From the UHGV virus genome UHGV-0193058: a stretch of 35,805 bases of DNA, one strand, 5' to 3'. The notes beneath the pieces were generated by a model. That model was not told the DNA's origin. It was given only the letters and a program-made list of their open reading frames with translations, and ran no database searches. This document shows, one piece after another, positions 17,834-28,171 of this stretch. The position numbers and the translations under genes were made by a program. The first letter of the stretch is position 1. Every line of letters starts with the position of its first letter. The stretch is from a virus.

Positions 17834-18469
17834 ATGAAAATTGGAGATAAATTTGAAAATCTTACAATACTAGATATAGAACAAAAAAATGGCAGGAAAT
17901 ATTGCTTATGTAAATGTAGTAATTGCAATAATGAAAAATGGATAAGGGCAGATAGTTTAAAAAGAATAAAAGCATGTGGATGCATGAAAAGTAACACACA
18001 GTTTAAACAAAATGATTTAACAGGCAAAAAGTTTGGCAGATTAACAGCAATAAAGAACACTAATAAAAAAGCTAAAAGTGGTCACTATATTTGGGCTTGT
18101 AAGTGTGATTGTGGAAATGAGATTAAGACAGCAGAAAACAATTTAACTACTGGTAGAACTAAATCATGTGGATGCTTGAAAAAGGAATCTAATATAAAAA
18201 ATGCAAAGATAGCGTTAAAAGTACATAAAGAAAAAAATATTATTGATGATACAAATCTATCTATTATAAAAAAGACAGAAGCGTATTCTAATTCAAAAAC
18301 TAAAATTAGAGGCGTTTCTTGGAATAAAGAAAAAAGAAAATACTGTGCACAAATAGAATTTAAGAAAATGCATTATAATCTAGGATACTATGACAACATA
18401 AGAGAAGCAGAAGAAGCATACAAAAAAGCCAAAGAAAAATTCTTAAAAGAAATAAACGGAAAAGTTTAA
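17834..18469 (+). CDS. AP2-domain DNA-binding protein with two N-terminal Cys-rich zinc-ribbon-like modules
   Basis: The C-terminus RGVSWNKEKRKYCAQIEFKKMHYNLGYYDNIREAEEAYKKAKEKF is AP2/ERF-like. The N-terminus has two 45-aa repeats, each with a GxKFxxLT...CxC..C.NE...CGC pattern. Confidence 0.6.
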   Translation: MKIGDKFENLTILDIEQKNGRKYCLCKCSNCNNEKWIRADSLKRIKACGCMKSNTQFKQNDLTGKKFGRLTAIKNTNKKAKSGHYIWACKCDCGNEIKTAENNLTTGRTKSCGCLKKESNIKNAKIALKVHKEKNIIDDTNLSIIKKTEAYSNSKTKIRGVSWNKEKRKYCAQIEFKKMHYNLGYYDNIREAEEAYKKAKEKFLKEINGKV

Positions 18470-18545: not shown

Positions 18546-18860
18546 ATGAATAAACAAAAAGCTAGAAGATTTTTAAGAGTTATAGATATGAATATAGATA
18601 AAATAGAAGAAGAAGCTATAAAAGCTTTTAAAGAAAGTTGTTTAATCAAAGAGACTAATGATATAAAAATTTATATCGATATACAAGGAAAAGTTGAAGC
18701 GATAGCAGTTCAAACTTGGGCTAAACTTTTAGATGATGACAAAGAAATTAATATTTTCACATTAAATCAAGCACCAACTCATTTAGACGATATGTTTGGA
18801 GAAATTTACCATGTAAATGATTATGAAGAGTTCGAAAAATGGTGTGAAAAAGGAAGATAA
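18546..18860 (+). CDS. hypothetical protein (moron)
   Basis: 104 aa with SD AAAGGAGGA, downstream of P2. Confidence 0.5.
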   Translation: MNKQKARRFLRVIDMNIDKIEEEAIKAFKESCLIKETNDIKIYIDIQGKVEAIAVQTWAKLLDDDKEINIFTLNQAPTHLDDMFGEIYHVNDYEEFEKWCEKGR

Positions 18861-18864
18861 AAGT

Positions 18865-19017
18865 TTGAATTGGGATAGTTATGAAAAATTCAATAAAGAA
18901 AATTTCGAAGAAATCGCTGAAAGAAATATAGATGATAGCTCATCAGCTTTTTTAGAAAAATTACGTGAAGGCATTGAAAATTGTAAACAAGAATTACAAA
19001 ATATAGTTGAAAATTAA
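18865..19017 (+). CDS. small hypothetical protein
   Basis: TTG start 9 nt after AAGGAAG, 50 aa (MNWDSYEKF...). The longer track ORF from 18817 overlaps the previous gene. Confidence 0.3.
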   Translation: MNWDSYEKFNKENFEEIAERNIDDSSSAFLEKLREGIENCKQELQNIVEN

Positions 19018-19052
19018 GTAGAAGAGTATTATTATTAATGTATATAGTATCG

Positions 19053-19284
19053 CTTTTGGTTAACTATAAGGGATTTAAAATATTTTTTAATTTATTTAGA
19101 AATGATATTGTAATAAGAATTTTCAGATTAACTATGAGGGATTTAAATGTCAATTTAATTTATAGAGAAATAATATAATATCAAATTATTTTATATTAAC
19201 TATAAGGGATTTAAATATCAATTTAATCTATATCTATATGATATAATATCACATTATTTTTAGATTAACTATACGGAAATAAAA
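19053..19284 (+). repeat. CRISPR-repeat-like 68-bp tandem array (3 units plus degenerate terminal unit), no cas genes
   Basis: Units start near 19053, 19121, 19189 and 19257. Each has a 29-nt segment TTTTnnnnTTAACTATrAGGGATTTAAAT. Unit 3 (ATTTTATATTAACTAT...) closely resembles the C. difficile type I-B repeat GTTTTATATTAACTAT.... The 39-nt intervening segments are about 80% identical to each other. Confidence 0.6.
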
Positions 19285-19316
19285 GCAGTGTATTCAATAA
19301 ATGCACTGCTTTTTTA
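19284..19316 (+). terminator. intrinsic terminator (convergent: array on +, orf96 on -)
   Basis: AGCAGTG tattcaataaat GCACTGCT followed by TTTTTT. Confidence 0.7.
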
Positions 19317-19327
19317 ATGCTAAAGAT

Positions 19328-19618
19328 TTAATTATTATGATAACTCAATCCTTCGATTAAAAATCCTACGTTCATTGTCATTTCTGCTTCGTCGCTTTGC
19401 AATATTCCTTCCGTAAATTCGCTGTCGCTTGGTAATGATACTTTTTTTCTTGCAACTGCTTCTATGATTGTTTGAAATAGTTTAATTTTCATATCCTTAT
19501 CAAATCCAGCGTATCGCAAAAAATTTACAACTTCCTGTGAAAACTTATTTAATTCAGATTTAGTCATTTTTTCAGATAACTCTTTTCCAATTTGCAAATA
19601 AACATTCATCTTTTCCAA
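19328..19618 (-). CDS. hypothetical protein, last gene of par operon
   Basis: 96 aa with SD AAAAGGGG, downstream of the parA/parG-like genes on the minus strand. Confidence 0.45.
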   Translation of the reverse strand: MEKMNVYLQIGKELSEKMTKSELNKFSQEVVNFLRYAGFDKDMKIKLFQTIIEAVARKKVSLPSDSEFTEGILQSDEAEMTMNVGFLIEGLSYHNN

Positions 19619-19687
19619 CCCCTTTTTAGATTATAGTTAAAACATATTATTTAAACAATATTGATATATTGTAATAATAATATTAAA

Positions 19688-19727
19688 ATATTACTTAAAT
19701 ATTATATATACAATATTTAAGTAATAT
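19688..19727. promoter_or_regulatory. 40-bp perfect palindrome (16-bp arms ATATTACTTAAATATT / AATATTTAAGTAATAT, 8-nt spacer)
   Basis: Read directly from the sequence. It is embedded in the AATATT-repeat intergenic region between the RHH gene and orf96. Confidence 0.6.
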
Positions 19728-19752
19728 CTAAACAATATAAATATAATATTAT

Positions 19753-20085
19753 TTACTTTTTCTTAGTCTTATTTCTTCTATTTCTCTCATTGTATATATT
19801 TAAATTCTCTTCTTTTATAGTGACATCAGATAAAATTTGAGTTAGTATATCACTTAATAATTTACTAACGTCGCTGTTCATATCAATAGAAAAAGATTTT
19901 AATTTGTTTACAAGTTCTTCATCAAGCGTTGCACTCATAGTCACTTTTTTACTTTTCTTATTAACTAAATTATATATGTTTAATGTCTTATTGTCTGTAG
20001 TTGTAGAATCATTTTGTGCGATTGTTCCATTTTTCAAAATCGGTTTTTCCTTATCAACTAAAAGGTCTCTGTTGAAACTTGGCAT
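19753..20085 (-). CDS. ribbon-helix-helix partition protein (ParG/CopG-like)
   Basis: 110 aa with a disordered basic N-terminus and the RHH motif KKVTMSATLDEELVNKLKSFSIDMNSDVSKLLSDILTQ. Its start is fused to the parA stop (TAGATG). Confidence 0.6.
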   Translation of the reverse strand: MPSFNRDLLVDKEKPILKNGTIAQNDSTTTDNKTLNIYNLVNKKSKKVTMSATLDEELVNKLKSFSIDMNSDVSKLLSDILTQILSDVTIKEENLNIYNERNRRNKTKKK

Positions 20086-20904: not shown

Positions 20905-21135
20905 CTCATTATTATATTTATAATATTATAATAATATTGTAGTATTGTTTTTATAATATTGCAACAATATATTAATATTGTTAATTACAATATTCAAATA
21001 ATATAAATACAATATTTACATATTGCTTTTACAATACCAATATATTATATTAAAAATACTAAAATATTGTATACACAATACTAAAATAATATTTTTATAA
21101 TATTACAGTATTATTTTTATATTATAGTAAAATTT
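20905..21135. promoter_or_regulatory. par promoter/centromere-like region with at least 8 AATATT / ACAATATT / AATATTGT boxes
   Basis: Repeated CAATATTG-type boxes upstream of parA, for example ...ATATATTAATATTGTTAATTACAATATTCAAATAATATAAATACAATATTTACATATTG.... Similar boxes recur at 19620-19750. Confidence 0.55.
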
Positions 21136-26449: not shown

Positions 26450-26620
26450 GACACACTCCCCATAGCTAAAGCAAGGGGATTCTCGGTGGCTAACACACTT
26501 ATTTATACTTAAACAGTACAACAGAGGTGGTTACAAAGCCAAGCTACTTCGGACGGTGTCTTCGCCACTACTACCTTAAAGTTATTCGCCCACACATGGC
26601 TCAAACGGTAGATACTTTTA
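26450..26620 (-). ncRNA. putative omega-RNA (right-end RNA) scaffold of TnpB
   Basis: A ~150-nt segment immediately 3' of tnpB on the minus strand is markedly more GC-rich and structured than the surrounding DNA (...GGCGAAGACACCGTCCGAAGTAGCTTGGC..., CCCCTTGCTTTAGCTATGGGGG). This is the expected location for the TnpB guide RNA. Confidence 0.45.
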
Positions 26621-27764
26621 AATTTATTGGTTGCTTATGATTTATTCTAAAATCTACTAAACCATATTTATGCTTTTTATTTAAAATATTCCAAGCACCA
26701 ACTATATCTCTATGAGTTTCATAACCACAAGTACAACTATAAGTTCTACCAGTTGGTTTGTGTTTTTTAGAACACTTTGGGCAAGTTTGAGAAGTGTAGT
26801 TTTCTTTAACTAACTTAACTTCAATACCTTGCTCTTTTGCTTTATATTTTATATAGTCCTTTATTCGACCATACTCCATTTGAGATATTTTCTGTCTATT
26901 AACTCTGTTTAATCTTTTCTTTTTCTTAGTATCTTTTTCAACCCCTTTTATATCCCCAAGAACTATTTCACATACCTTCTGCTCTACACAAAAGTCTATA
27001 AACTTTCTAGTTGTTTGATGATATAAATTCATTAACTGATTATCTGTTTTACTTCTTATCTTATTTTTTAATCTCCATAACTTCTTTGATTGTCTACTAC
27101 CTTTTTTACATTTACTTAATCTTTTAGATATATAAGCATACATCTTATTTCTAAATTGTTTAATACTTCTGCCTTCTCTATTAGATAGAATAAGCCCTAC
27201 ACCTTCATTTGTTACACTAGCTATCGAATGTATTTCCCCTAAGTCTACACCTACGGTATTAGTGCCTTTGGCTACAACTCCATTTAATTCATTGTCAAAA
27301 GTGTAGTATAAATAATATCCATTTCGCCATACTATTTCAGCAGTTTTTATATTCTCAACATTAAAATCTAATTCTAAATACCTGCCTTTTGACATTGATA
27401 ATTTTAAGTTGCCTTTAGCATTTCTATTAATAGCACTAGCTTTAAAAGGTATTATATAAAATTTCTTAGTCTTGTATGGATATTTTGCTTTAGTATTACC
27501 TTTTTTTCTTAATTCTGATATAGTCTTTCTATTTGCATCAAATTTATCTGATATAGCTTGAATAGTTTGACTATGAAGATTGTACTTACCTTTGATTAAC
27601 TTTTGTATATCATTCTTTTTAATCCATTGTTTATGTTCAAAATAGTATTCTTTAGATAAGTTAACTATGTAGTTCCAACAGTTAGCACTTTCCATTTGCT
27701 TTTCCCTTACTAATTCAAATTGTGTTCTAGTTAGGTTTAATTTCACTCTATGAGTTTTTATCAT
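26601..27764 (-). CDS. tnpB: TnpB (OrfB) RNA-guided endonuclease-family protein
   Basis: 387 aa. The C-terminal zinc finger CPKCSKKHKPTGRTYSCTCGYETHRD and the RuvC-like region (VGVDLGEIH...) are typical of IS605 OrfB. Confidence 0.85.
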   Translation of the reverse strand: MIKTHRVKLNLTRTQFELVREKQMESANCWNYIVNLSKEYYFEHKQWIKKNDIQKLIKGKYNLHSQTIQAISDKFDANRKTISELRKKGNTKAKYPYKTKKFYIIPFKASAINRNAKGNLKLSMSKGRYLELDFNVENIKTAEIVWRNGYYLYYTFDNELNGVVAKGTNTVGVDLGEIHSIASVTNEGVGLILSNREGRSIKQFRNKMYAYISKRLSKCKKGSRQSKKLWRLKNKIRSKTDNQLMNLYHQTTRKFIDFCVEQKVCEIVLGDIKGVEKDTKKKKRLNRVNRQKISQMEYGRIKDYIKYKAKEQGIEVKLVKENYTSQTCPKCSKKHKPTGRTYSCTCGYETHRDIVGAWNILNKKHKYGLVDFRINHKQPINLKVSTV

Positions 27765-28171
27765 TTCTTTGTCCTAACTTGTTGATTTTCTATATATTGT
27801 TTAACTACTTCTAAACTCACAGAACCAACAGTACCTACAAAATAGCTATTAGTCCACATGCTAGGCATACTAGACTTTAAATGTGGAAAGTTCTCTCTTA
27901 ATACTCTCGAACTAAAGCCTTTTAAACCTTTTACTACTTTATGAATTCCATATTGAGGGTCACAAGATATTAATAAGTGCACATGTTCTTTATCAGTTTC
28001 CATTTCTATTATTTCTGCTCCAAGTTCATCTGCTTTATATGGTAGTATTTCTTTTAACATCTTTTCAACTTCGCCAACTAAAACAGGTTTACGATACTTA
28101 GGGCAAAATACAATATGATATTTGCAATCATAAACTATATTTTTGTTAGATTTATACATAAAAACTAACAC
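27761..28171 (-). CDS. tnpA: IS200-like Y1 (HUH) transposase TnpA
   Basis: 136 aa with the HUH motif EHVHLLIS and catalytic Tyr context WTNSYFVGTVG. SD AGGAGGTG. Confidence 0.85.
   Translation of the reverse strand: MLVFMYKSNKNIVYDCKYHIVFCPKYRKPVLVGEVEKMLKEILPYKADELGAEIIEMETDKEHVHLLISCDPQYGIHKVVKGLKGFSSRVLRENFPHLKSSMPSMWTNSYFVGTVGSVSLEVVKQYIENQQVRTKK

Follow-up and report, generated by a model that had tools for sequence, protein, structure and literature searches.

A short tandem array in the genome of a phiCDHM13-like Clostridioides difficile phage is, judging from sequence comparison, likely a Cas-less array, carried by the phage, of regulatory RNAs that resemble crRNAs (viral crlRNAs, a 'Cracr array') and are directed against the type I-B CRISPR system of C. 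difficile. It is most likely a phage imitation of a host CRISPR-like regulatory RNA gene that lies before the cas operon. As this imitation is encoded between two anti-CRISPR-type genes, the phage probably turns host CRISPR proteins against their own system to shut it down. The array was examined within its window, which is the whole stretch of 35,805 nucleotides analysed (viral genome UHGV-0193058). The decisive result is a host mini-array homologous to the phage units, with the promoter-proximal region, PsiR, PsiS, and PsiR aligned.

Anatomy of the array

A TRF search identified a tandem repeat at 19060-19273 (period 68, 3.1 copies, 80% matches, score 214) that is by far the strongest of the whole window. 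An earlier note on this DNA had described four 29-nt units at this location, and these were recovered with exact starts at 19052, 19120, 19188, and 19257. The array thus comprises four CRISPR-like repeats and three spacers of 39, 39, and 40 nt, with the following parts.

19007-19035, + strand: sigma-A-type promoter-like site TTGAAA-N17-TATTAT (consensus scan, 10/12)
19052-19080, + strand: R1 (PsiR1), repeat-like unit 1, GCTTTTGGTTAACTATAAGGGATTTAAAA, aligned to host PsiR1
19081-19119, + strand: S1, spacer-like 1, class A, 39 nt, begins TATTTTTTAATTTAT
19120-19148, + strand: R2 (PsiR2), repeat-like unit 2, TTTTCAGATTAACTATGAGGGATTTAAAT
19149-19187, + strand: S2, spacer-like 2, class B, 39 nt, begins GTCAATTTAATTTATA
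19188-19216, + strand: R3 (PsiR3), repeat-like unit 3, ATTTTATATTAACTATAAGGGATTTAAAT, as quoted in the earlier note
19217-19256, + strand: S3, spacer-like 3, class C, 40 nt, begins ATCAATTTAATCTAT
19257-19285, + strand: R4, terminal degenerate repeat, TTTTTAGATTAACTATACGGAAATAAAAG, with 3' end GGAAATAAAAG
19281-19315, no strand assigned: intrinsic terminator; hairpin (RNA fold), T-runs on both strands

The putative promoter, a consensus match, overlaps the stop codon of acrIB2 and is located 17-45 nt upstream of R1, with a predicted start approximately 10-15 nt upstream of that repeat; a host-type CRISPR leader for spacer integration is reported to span ~170-200 nt. The promoter-like site is kept in all aligned phages, including phiCD418, in which the 3' end of the coding sequence has diverged. 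Each spacer has a motif resembling TGATATAAT some 8 nt ahead of the repeat that follows. Internal promoters were considered on this basis and set aside, as the motifs could not be told apart from A/T-rich chance. At the other end of the array, the degenerate last unit is followed by a terminator, as had been noted earlier. The 3' end of R4 forms part of the terminator stem, as is also the case in genuine C. difficile arrays, and the hairpin (-16.7 kcal/mol, z = -4.7, 0/200 shuffles equally stable) was found by RNA folding after a simple terminator scan had missed it. This terminator is common to the array and the convergent 93-aa gene.

The spacers had been described as 39-mers about 80% identical to each other. 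This description fits S2 and S3 (78%) but not S1/S2 or S1/S3 (62% each), and S3 is 40 nt long. Compared with class B, S3 has a different nucleotide at position 1 of the seed and again at position 12.

Genes flanking the array

Three genes surrounding the array bear on its interpretation.

17834-18469, + strand: AP2-domain protein (phiCDHM13 gp27), putative anti-CRISPR-associated regulator (Pfam AP2, E=8.6e-6, below gathering score)
18546-19017, + strand: acrIB2 homolog, split into overlapping ORFs 18546-18860 and 18817-19017 (tblastn with phiCD38-2 AcrIB2)
19328-19609, - strand: 93-aa gene, homologous to the C-terminal ~85 residues of host Cas8b (Cas11b-like small subunit; tblastn, E=9.6e-8)

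The fused, 156-aa AcrIB2 of phiCD38-2 is a validated type I-B anti-CRISPR, and the split version of phiCDHM13 was inactive in the assay of the same study (PMC10732046). That study also cites a report of strong transcription, in a phiCD38-2 lysogen, of acrIB2 and the genes preceding it, and it proposed the anti-CRISPR-associated regulatory role of the AP2-domain protein, the gene for which is present in only a subset of array-bearing phage loci.

It had been stated that the window contains no cas genes. A tblastn search of the window with 11 Cas proteins indeed found no whole cas gene, but its sole match, the ORF at 19328-19609, is a homolog of the Cas8b C-terminus. By BLASTP, the 93-aa protein is 33% identical over 85 aa to Cas8b residues 410-487, and host cas8b contains an internal GGAGG and ATG for a 91-aa product. 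The AF2 model of the phage protein is a five-helix bundle (pLDDT 82.7). A fold search with it returned no significant match, and the weak top matches include Cas11-type small subunits. Based on these comparisons, the 93-aa gene is a candidate AcrIB4-like Cas mimic. AcrIB4, a Listeria viral homolog of the Cas8b C-terminus (discussed in bioRxiv 10.1101/2025.06.06.658234), is ~90 aa long and corresponds to the C-terminal ~85-90 residues of Cas8b, which are also produced separately as Cas11b; the 93-aa protein is likened to it by this description. The window also encodes an IS605 TnpB and, at 19753-20085, orf110, an RHH-type (Arc-like) protein of 110 aa.

Similarity of the repeats to host CRISPR repeats

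The repeat-like units were compared with the canonical C. difficile repeats GTTTTATATTAACTAAGTGGTATGTAAAT and GTTTTAGATTAACTATATGGAATGTAAAT, as the earlier note had proposed, and they match at 22-24 of 29 positions, i.e. 5-7 positions differ. Since R3 matches the two canonical repeats at 23/29 and 24/29 positions, the similarity claimed for the 5' half and the 8-nt handle (phage ATTTAAAT, host ATGTAAAT) holds. R2 matches the canonical repeats at 22-23/29 positions. Agreement with host PsiR1-A is 25/29 for R2 and likewise for R3. At the gathering threshold, Rfam gave no match in the window; at a relaxed threshold, CRISPR-DR14 scored R3 at 30.8, R2 at 23.9, and R4 at 20.1 bits, all below the gathering score of 45. 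Folding gave no argument, as neither phage nor host repeats form a hairpin stabler than those of shuffled sequences. The lack of a stable hairpin in the phage units and their 5-7 differences from canonical repeats count against their acceptance by C. difficile Cas6.

A homologous mini-array upstream of host cas6

The host cas locus was reached via a Cas7 protein of C. bornimense. Within the partial cas operon of C. difficile, which alone is needed for interference in this organism (PMC10732046), a mini-array is located upstream of cas6, and its repeat ends in GGGATTTAAAT as do those of the phage. The mini-array occurs in two forms, variant A (loci L163, L168, L169, and L171) and variant B (loci L167 and L170), the spacers of which are 79% identical. 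Each form has a counterpart in the phage. S1 and the variant A spacer are identical over their first 15 nt and 77% identical overall, and S2 and the variant B spacer are identical over their first 16 nt and 79% identical overall; the cross pairs (S1 with B, S2 with A) reach 64-67%. This accounts for the resemblance among the phage spacers: a single host regulatory spacer exists in allelic variants, and the phage spacers are the counterparts of these.

For S3, no counterpart was found among the host mini-arrays. A homolog search with the small ORF retrieved variant A forms only, and a metagenome scan added one variant A and one variant B locus and no third variant. The other Cas7 clusters consist of a locus of a related species (L172), a locus without a mini-array (L173), and one truncated contig. 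The partial operon of the related species has an equal layout with an unrelated spacer/target pair. Host CRISPR loci from a genome scan had no cas genes in their flanks, and a search with the 49-aa 'Cas3-HD' CDS of phiCD211 retrieved that CDS alone. In the literature searched, the C. difficile mini-array was not found described.

Predicted host targets

A site matching the seed at positions 1-5 and 7-12 is present for both variants. The site for S1 and variant A is CCA followed by TATTTATTAATT (L163, 7378-7416), and the site for S2 and variant B is CCG followed by GTCAAATTAATT (L170, 6096-6134, and likewise in L167). CCN PAMs work in C. difficile (PMC8406132). The best intergenic promoter-like site, TTGACT-N17/18-TATAAT (11/12), precedes the 58-aa ORF and cas6, and its -35 box is overlapped by the L163 site and contained in the L170 site. 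Seed and target co-vary: variants A and B disagree at each of seed positions 1-5, and their target sites show the corresponding changes.

The L163 site is the top PAM-flanked seed match in the whole 21-kb locus. Shuffled spacers did as well in the intergenic region (10/10) in 7 of 2000 cases (0.35%), a figure to be read with the caveat that the seeds have low complexity and a high A/T content and that PAM-flanked 9/10 seed matches occur elsewhere in the host locus. In the 1.37 Mb of DNA searched, the YCN-flanked S1 seed was found in all four variant A loci and at one stray site, and the YCN-flanked S2 seed was found in the two variant B loci only. No target for S3 or for the GGCAA variant was present in any of this sequence. 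Published RNA-seq of JD032 infection lends no support to the predicted targeting, as the tables of differentially expressed genes examined list none of the genes of the partial operon; the cas locus that is down-regulated is a different, WYL-type one.

These matches bear on whether the guides matter at all. Of the three options in the earlier note, that of an RNA anti-CRISPR mimicking crRNA comes closest to the data, though it had been framed as a solitary repeat. If the array were a pure decoy of this Racr-like kind, repeat-like RNAs would merely soak up Cas6 or Cascade subunits, and neither the guides nor the promoter match would play a role. The resemblance of phage to host repeats is in keeping with such a decoy, as are the position of the array next to acrIB2, given that racr genes adjoin acr genes (PMC10651486), and those relatives in which the locus is reduced to a promoter, the terminal repeat, and a terminator and so resembles a solitary-repeat unit; RacrIF1, moreover, works through dose-dependent competition. 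However, the spacers are copies of two host regulatory spacers with identical 15-16-nt seeds, and the seed types are fixed across ~40 loci, which would be unexpected for a pure decoy. Searches for solitary repeats also leave out repeats that are associated with other repeats. We therefore regard a pure decoy as unlikely, albeit the strongest of the rival explanations.

Distribution and conservation of the array

The array recurs in ~40 phage or prophage loci and in 24 C. difficile phage-plasmids. It is present in 29 of the 31 phage records that encode an AcrIB2 homolog and in 29 IMG/VR contigs. Gene order is fixed, with acrIB2 directly upstream and the 93-aa gene directly downstream in every array-bearing locus. 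The 93 spacer copies fall into no more than four seed types, and their order is always A, B, C. The terminal repeat alone is retained in phiCD481-1, phiCD506, and 13 plasmids, and the spacers are therefore dispensable for those phages.

Part of this pattern might be expected of a non-functional remnant, i.e. a decayed copy of a host CRISPR array or mini-array that an ancestral phage acquired and that is carried along as the 3' UTR of acrIB2. The spacers are frozen, cas genes are lacking, the last repeat is degenerate, units are down to one in many relatives without obvious harm, and solitary terminal repeats with terminators are also scattered over the host genome. The conservation of the element speaks against decay. 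The non-coding region is better conserved than acrIB2, with identities of 87-100% for the promoter/leader and terminal unit against only 78-81% for the acrIB2 DNA. Almost all internal repeats of the ~40 loci have ATTAACTA..AGGGATTTAAA unchanged, the exception being the first repeat of the phiCDHM13/JD032/JD033 group, window included, which reads GTTAACTA. The seeds are invariant whereas the 3' parts of the spacers vary, and the array is retained in three very different phage groups with genomes of 32, 41, and 131 kb. A remnant thus appears quite improbable. The related option of a decayed defensive array, raised in the earlier note, is not supported given conservation at least equal to that of the flanking genes, the four seed types among 93 copies, and the lack of protospacers elsewhere in the phage collection.

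A homologous array in phiCD211 has been annotated and discussed in the literature as a CRISPR array, and the present one could accordingly be seen as a genuine defensive mini-CRISPR for inter-phage warfare. The phiCD211 record carries rpt_family=CRISPR, and the geometry of 29-nt repeats and 39-nt spacers is typical of C. difficile arrays. When the spacers were searched against 50,697 phage records, the sole significant matches were homologous arrays, at one place per record, flanked by repeat sequence and without a PAM. The spacers are common to several lineages rather than unique. In the phage's own genome, PAM-flanked seed matches were at the level of chance (best run 8, null mean 8.5). We consider a defensive function very improbable. 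The earlier note had remarked that a tandemly duplicated unit is not expected for a functional adaptive array, and spacers common to ~40 loci and the absence of protospacers from the phage collection, homologous arrays aside, likewise speak against an adaptive array.

There is an equally slight probability that the repeats act at the level of DNA, be it as iterons, as a centromere for partition, or as binding sites for a regulator, in connection with the neighbouring par genes or the AP2 protein. In favor of this, the array is a tandem direct repeat near the ParA operon in the window, and ATTTAAAT is palindromic. Against it, ParA is within the examined flank in only about half of the array loci (absent in phiCD211, phiCD418, and CD1801), the AP2 gene is absent beside the array in phiCD38-2, the par genes have separate flanking repeat arrays, and the unit is homologous to an RNA gene of the host cas locus, so that the partition or replication site suggested earlier is not supported. 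These other short tandem repeats flanking the par genes of the window are arrays of 22/33 bp.

Proposed mechanism

For an imitation of the host regulatory RNA gene, the following course of events would be expected. The array would be transcribed on the + strand from the promoter-like site, by read-through from acrIB2, or both, up to the terminator. Host Cas6 would cut the repeat-like units, yielding RNAs that carry ATTTAAA(T/A) as their 5' handle ahead of a guide of 39-40 nt, and these phage RNAs would load into host Cascade instead of ordinary crRNAs. As guides 1 and 2 are identical to host mini-array variants A and B, respectively, over their first 12 nt, the loaded complexes would be expected to bind the CCN-flanked site at the -35 box ahead of the 58-aa ORF and cas6, and to do so without cutting. 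The predicted outcome is tighter repression of the partial-operon promoter, which may govern the cas genes, a possible guarded toxin, or both. As a second predicted outcome, the phage RNAs would compete for Cas proteins with antiviral crRNAs. Carrying two guides for two host alleles would widen the host range.

The array probably works jointly with AcrIB2 and the Cas8b-C-terminus/Cas11b-like protein. AcrIB2 is thought to be a DNA mimic and could also block Cascade carrying a phage RNA, which counts against the proposed synergy. A more speculative reading, which we hold to be possible but rather doubtful, joins these elements into a three-layer mimicry cassette, in which AcrIB2 mimics DNA, the array mimics guide RNA, and the Cas8b-C-terminus/Cas11b-like protein mimics a Cas subunit. 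Such a cassette would disarm the sole interference-proficient C. difficile cas operon and keep a CRISPR-guarded toxin silent, the 58-aa hydrophobic ORF behind the targeted promoter being a protein CreT. S3 and the GGCAA variant would, on this reading, steer host Cascade towards additional host promoters, for example those of other defence systems.

Comparison with known systems

The closest parallel is provided by the viral crlRNA arrays, for which synergy with Acr proteins is described (Liu et al., bioRxiv 10.1101/2024.10.29.618823; latest version July 2026). Like those arrays, the present one is phage-borne, lies outside any CRISPR-Cas locus, and has a PsiR-PsiS-PsiR architecture. According to the preprint, seeds are copied from host CreA/CreR-type mini-arrays with at least 9 PAM-proximal nt (15-16 here), spacers of one array match allelic variants of one host system, and an Acr protein is co-encoded, and each of these features recurs here. 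A PAM-flanked site with partial complementarity at a cas or toxin promoter was found for S1 and S2 only. In contrast to the present I-B array, those reported in the preprint are of subtypes I-C, I-E, and I-F only, with I-B candidates mentioned without detail; the three spacers here are of full crRNA length (39-40 nt) and not shortened as are those described there; and the partners here are AcrIB2 and the Cas8b-C-terminus/Cas11b-like protein.

Racrs (Camara-Wilpert et al. 2023, PMC10651486) are likewise phage repeat mimics that adjoin an acr gene downstream of a promoter, and engagement of Cas6 and Cascade would be expected in both cases. Racrs are single repeats without neighbouring repeats or guide function, whereas the array has four units at 68-bp spacing and conserved guides; the Racr anatomy fits only the one-unit relatives, phiCD481-1 and phiCD506. 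In the parts of the PMC10651486 supplement examined, solitary repeat unit (SRU) entries show identities of roughly 96-100%, above the 22-24/29 match of the array units to canonical C. difficile repeats, and the repeat strings of the array are absent from these parts.

The C. difficile host element itself resembles host CreA/CreR (Li et al. 2021; Liu et al. 2023, bioRxiv 10.1101/2023.03.10.532045) in being a degenerate mini-array inside a cas locus that pairs with a PAM-flanked promoter site via only the PAM-proximal ~12 nt. It may guard a toxin, as in the CreA type, or serve solely in cas autoregulation, as in the CreR type. The phage copy differs in that it is located outside the cas locus and is multiplexed. 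Finally, CRISPR arrays of C. difficile prophages (Hargreaves 2014, PMC4173771; Boudry 2015, PMC4556805) share the repeat family, the repeat/spacer geometry, the degenerate terminal repeat fused to a terminator, and a phage without cas genes. Their spacers are unique and match other phages, whereas those described here are fixed and match only the host promoter region, and their repeats end in GG(T/A)ATGTAAAT, whereas the present ones end like the host mini-array.

Implications

The type I-B CRISPR system of C. difficile is unusually active and thereby an obstacle to phage therapy, and AcrIB2 is the sole validated protein anti-CRISPR for it. If the interpretation is true, the acrIB2 locus would also encode an RNA anti-CRISPR and a Cas-subunit mimic, and the inactivity of the phiCDHM13 proteins, when assayed by themselves in the published work, could be due to this. 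The interpretation would also overturn the published view of the phiCD211 'CRISPR array' as an anti-phage weapon. The data point to a regulatory mini-array, without a description in the literature searched, and possibly a guarded toxin before the interference-proficient cas operon. The element is small, and each step is testable with existing C. difficile tools. Viral crRNA-like arrays would, if this reading is true, be extended to subtype I-B in a Gram-positive pathogen.

Anatomy of the phage array

The window is a C. difficile phage resembling phiCDHM13 (100% identity across the region). The tandem repeat described in the earlier note was recovered by TRF as the strongest in the window (19060-19273, period 68, 3.1 copies, 80% matches, score 214) and was resolved into repeat-like units (R) and spacer-like parts (S).

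Features of the phage array (window positions)
19052-19080: R1, repeat-like unit
19081-19119: S1, 39 nt
19120-19148: R2, repeat-like unit
19149-19187: S2, 39 nt
19188-19216: R3, repeat-like unit
19217-19256: S3, 40 nt
19257-19285: R4, 3' end degenerate, merges into terminator
19281-19315: terminator, hairpin of 14 bp, T-run

The terminator after the degenerate last unit folds at -16.7 kcal/mol (z = -4.7), and 19007-19035 hold a promoter-like site of the sigma-A type (TTGAAA-N17-TATTAT). The spacers had been thought to be about 80% alike, which holds for S2/S3 (78%) and not for S1/S2 or S1/S3 (both 62%). Each contains a -10-like motif (19100-19115, 19166-19180, and 19236-19249) ~8-12 nt ahead of the following repeat, that of S3 being a perfect extended -10 (TGATATAAT), and the sequence immediately 5' of R1 is homologous to S3's -10-like stretch; these motifs could be internal promoters or A/T-rich chance.

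The Rfam model CRISPR-DR14 matched R3, R2, and R4, all below threshold. True C. difficile repeats, obtained by scanning species-representative genomes, read GTTTTATATTAACTAAGTGGTATGTAAAT and GTTTTAGATTAACTATATGGAATGTAAAT. The resemblance of the 29-nt element to host repeats was upheld upon alignment to these repeats: 19-24 of 29 positions match, with consistent differences at positions 21 and 24 (GGGATTTAAAT in phage units vs GG(T/A)ATGTAAAT in host repeats). Genuine host arrays, like the phage array, end in a degenerate repeat merged with a terminator. Two C. difficile genomes carry a mini-array with one conserved spacer (TGTATAAGGTTATTGTG...; L071 241-335 and L055 1883-1976), and solitary terminal-type repeats joined to terminators occur at L071 3327, L055 7523, and L085 4129; these are possibly further regulatory or remnant elements.

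Spacer seeds and the host partial cas operon

The 93 spacer copies collected from phage arrays contain four seed types only, TATTTTTTAATT, GTCAATTTAATT, ATCAATTTAAT(C/T), and the rare GGCAATTTAATT, in constant order, with variable spacer 3' parts. In C. difficile, the partial cas operon (cas6-cas8b-cas7-cas5-cas3), the sole operon needed for interference (PMC10732046), was reached via a Cas7 homolog. The intergenic region upstream of cas6 contains a mini-array (7235-7331 in L163, a chromosomal locus) whose repeat, like the phage units, ends in GGGATTTAAAT.

Host mini-arrays and target sites
L163 7235-7263: first repeat, TTTTTAGATTAACAATATGGGATTTAAAT
L163 7264-7302: spacer, TATTTTTTAATTTATAATGAAATAATATTATATTAGTAG
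L163 7303-7331: second repeat, degenerate
L163 7378: variant A target, CCA followed by TATTTATTAATT
L170 6096: variant B target, CCG followed by GTCAAATTAATT
L172 137-230: mini-array upstream of cas6 in a related type I-B partial operon (Logan SRR27460650)
L172 292-330: target, CCCC-flanked, at the small-ORF ribosome-binding site

Two alleles of this element were found. The variant A spacer (L163) is identical to phage S1 over its first 15 nt (77% overall), and the variant B spacer (L167 and L170; GTCAATTTAATTTATAAGG...) to phage S2 over its first 16 nt (79% overall). The variant A small ORF is present on ~1,000 contigs, and variant A is therefore the common allele. In each allele, a CCN-flanked site ~70-110 nt downstream agrees with the spacer of that allele at positions 1-5 and 7-12; both pairs are mismatched at position 6, a position left unpaired in type I complexes. 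Seed positions 1-5, all paired, differ between the alleles, with spacer and target changing together. Both target sites overlap or contain the -35 box of the region's best promoter-like site (TTGACT-N17/18-TATAAT, 11/12; in variant A, the target and this strong promoter-like site together occupy L163 7375-7440), 3' of which lie a conserved 58-aa ORF (L163 7487-7663) with a hydrophobic C-terminal half and then cas6, with no terminator between the two. CCN serves as a functional PAM in C. difficile (PMC8406132). The L163 target is the top PAM-flanked seed match in 21 kb, and only 7 of 2000 shuffled spacers equaled its match in the intergenic region. Across the 1.37 Mb searched, all four variant A loci and one stray site contain the YCN-flanked S1 seed, the YCN-flanked S2 seed is confined to the two variant B loci, and spacer 3 has no target. 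A caveat is the A/T-rich composition of the seeds, for which matches of 9/10 can also be found elsewhere in the host locus.

The arrangement recurs in the related partial operon L172, there with a spacer and target (GTATAAGAGTATATTAAT vs GTATAAGAATATATTAAT) unrelated to these. The host mini-array, target, and 58-aa ORF may be read, from sequence, as a possible CreR or CreTA-like circuit, of which no description in C. difficile was found in the literature searched. A degenerate three-repeat array (GTTTAAGATTAACTAAGTGGGTTTCAGGT...) is located directly 3' of the operon's cas3 (L163 14406-14570). A purely decoy role for the phage array, as in the solitary-repeat Racr RNA anti-CRISPRs, is possible and is partly contained in the mechanism proposed below, but leaves the conserved seeds unexplained.

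Distribution and conservation

The array is intergenic in 29 phage records from three very different groups (Sherbrookevirus, ~33 kb; phiCD38-2-like, ~41 kb; phiCD211-like, ~131 kb) and was also found in 29 IMG/VR contigs and 24 C. difficile phage-plasmids, with no other occurrence in these three collections as searched. Unit number varies in register from 1 (the terminal repeat alone) to 4; the terminal repeat stands alone in many relatives, which counts against the regulatory reading proposed below. The promoter/leader and terminal unit retain 87-100% identity where the acrIB2 DNA of the same pairs is at 78-81%, and such conservation is hard to reconcile with a decayed remnant.

Different phages have array spacers in common. 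When the concatenated spacers were searched against 50,697 phage records, homologous arrays were the sole significant matches, and the phage's own genome contained no PAM-flanked spacer match above chance. By sequence, the array is not adaptive, and a defensive function is contradicted by the absence of protospacers from the 50,697 records. The phiCD211 array was reported, in a claim as cited in PMC10732046, to target 'known C. difficile phages', probably because its spacers match homologous arrays in other phages.

Flanking genes

The anti-CRISPR locus comprises phiCDHM13 gp26-gp29 (PMC10732046). The acrIB2 homolog gp28/gp29 (18546-19017) consists of two overlapping ORFs, which are one ORF of 156 aa in phiCD38-2 and in most relatives; the fused phiCD38-2 AcrIB2 blocks C. 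difficile type I-B interference and the split form was inactive in the same assay (PMC10732046). The array starts 35 nt past the acrIB2 stop codon. At every locus with sufficient sequence, acrIB2 is directly 5' of the array and a convergent 93-aa gene directly 3', and two phages with a diverged acrIB2 have neither array nor 93-aa gene. ParA and an AP2 gene accompany subsets of array loci only. A partition site acting at the DNA level is contradicted by arrays present without par genes and by homology to the cas-locus element. The ParA operon is flanked by short tandem repeats (22 and 33 bp; 19644-19751 and 20908-21119), between which lies a 110-aa gene with an Arc/RHH-like match; as candidates for a centromere or operator, these are better suited than the 68-bp array.

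An IS200/IS605 element (26601-28171, minus strand; Y1 TnpA of 136 aa, TnpB of 387 aa with a Cas12f1-like TNB domain) probably explains the window's extra length relative to phiCDHM13, and phiCD211 has a related transposase pair near its array. A 49-aa phiCD211 CDS annotated 'CRISPR-associated endonuclease Cas3-HD' (L001 3796-3945) had no homolog but itself among 5.8 billion proteins, and the annotation looks unsupported.

The 93-aa gene (19328-19609, minus strand), listed as conserved and of unknown function (PMC10732046), encodes a homolog of the C-terminal ~85 residues of Cas8b (tblastn with host Cas queries, E = 9.6e-8), with 33% identity to host Cas8b residues 410-487 of 491 and 28% to the C. 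bornimense protein. Its AF2 model is a five-helix bundle (pLDDT 82.7); a fold search returned no significant matches, and several of the weak top ones were Cas11-type subunits. Host cas8b has an internal GGAGG and ATG at Met401 that would yield a 91-aa product, which fits the internally translated Cas11b known in type I-B (PMC11899642). The Listeria AcrIB4, likewise homologous to the Cas8b C-terminus, has been proposed as a Cas11 replacement (bioRxiv 10.1101/2025.06.06.658234). The 93-aa protein is thus a candidate AcrIB4-like Cas-subunit mimic, whose Cas8b counterpart is likely made separately as Cas11b. The cassette seems to unite mimics of three kinds, of DNA, of guide RNA, and of a Cas subunit.

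Proposed mechanism

The host element shares the defining features of CreA/CreR-type mini-arrays. Like the viral crlRNA arrays termed Cracr arrays (bioRxiv 10.1101/2024.10.29.618823), the phage array is carried on a mobile element, has seeds derived from the host element, has separate spacers per host allele, and is encoded together with an Acr. Given these two likenesses, we propose that the array would be transcribed from the plus strand, its RNA cut by host Cas6, and the products taken into Cascade, which would occupy the promoter 5' of the 58-aa ORF and cas6 without cleavage; repression would be tightened, alongside competition with antiviral crRNAs. Repression of the partial operon is absent from the RNA-seq of phage JD032 (PMC7205517, supplement tables), which has an array version with three units. 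During JD032 infection, transcripts of a WYL-associated full cas locus (TW11_0692-0700) fall two- to four-fold (PMC7205517), a drop for which the seeds described here do not account.

On the observed anatomy, linkage, homology, matching of seeds to targets, and co-variation, the phage array is probably a new member of the recently described Cracr kind, and would be the first of type I-B in the literature searched, the preprint's tables aside. On this basis a published phage 'CRISPR array' would be read differently, and the key cas operon of C. difficile is likely under a regulatory circuit brought to light here.
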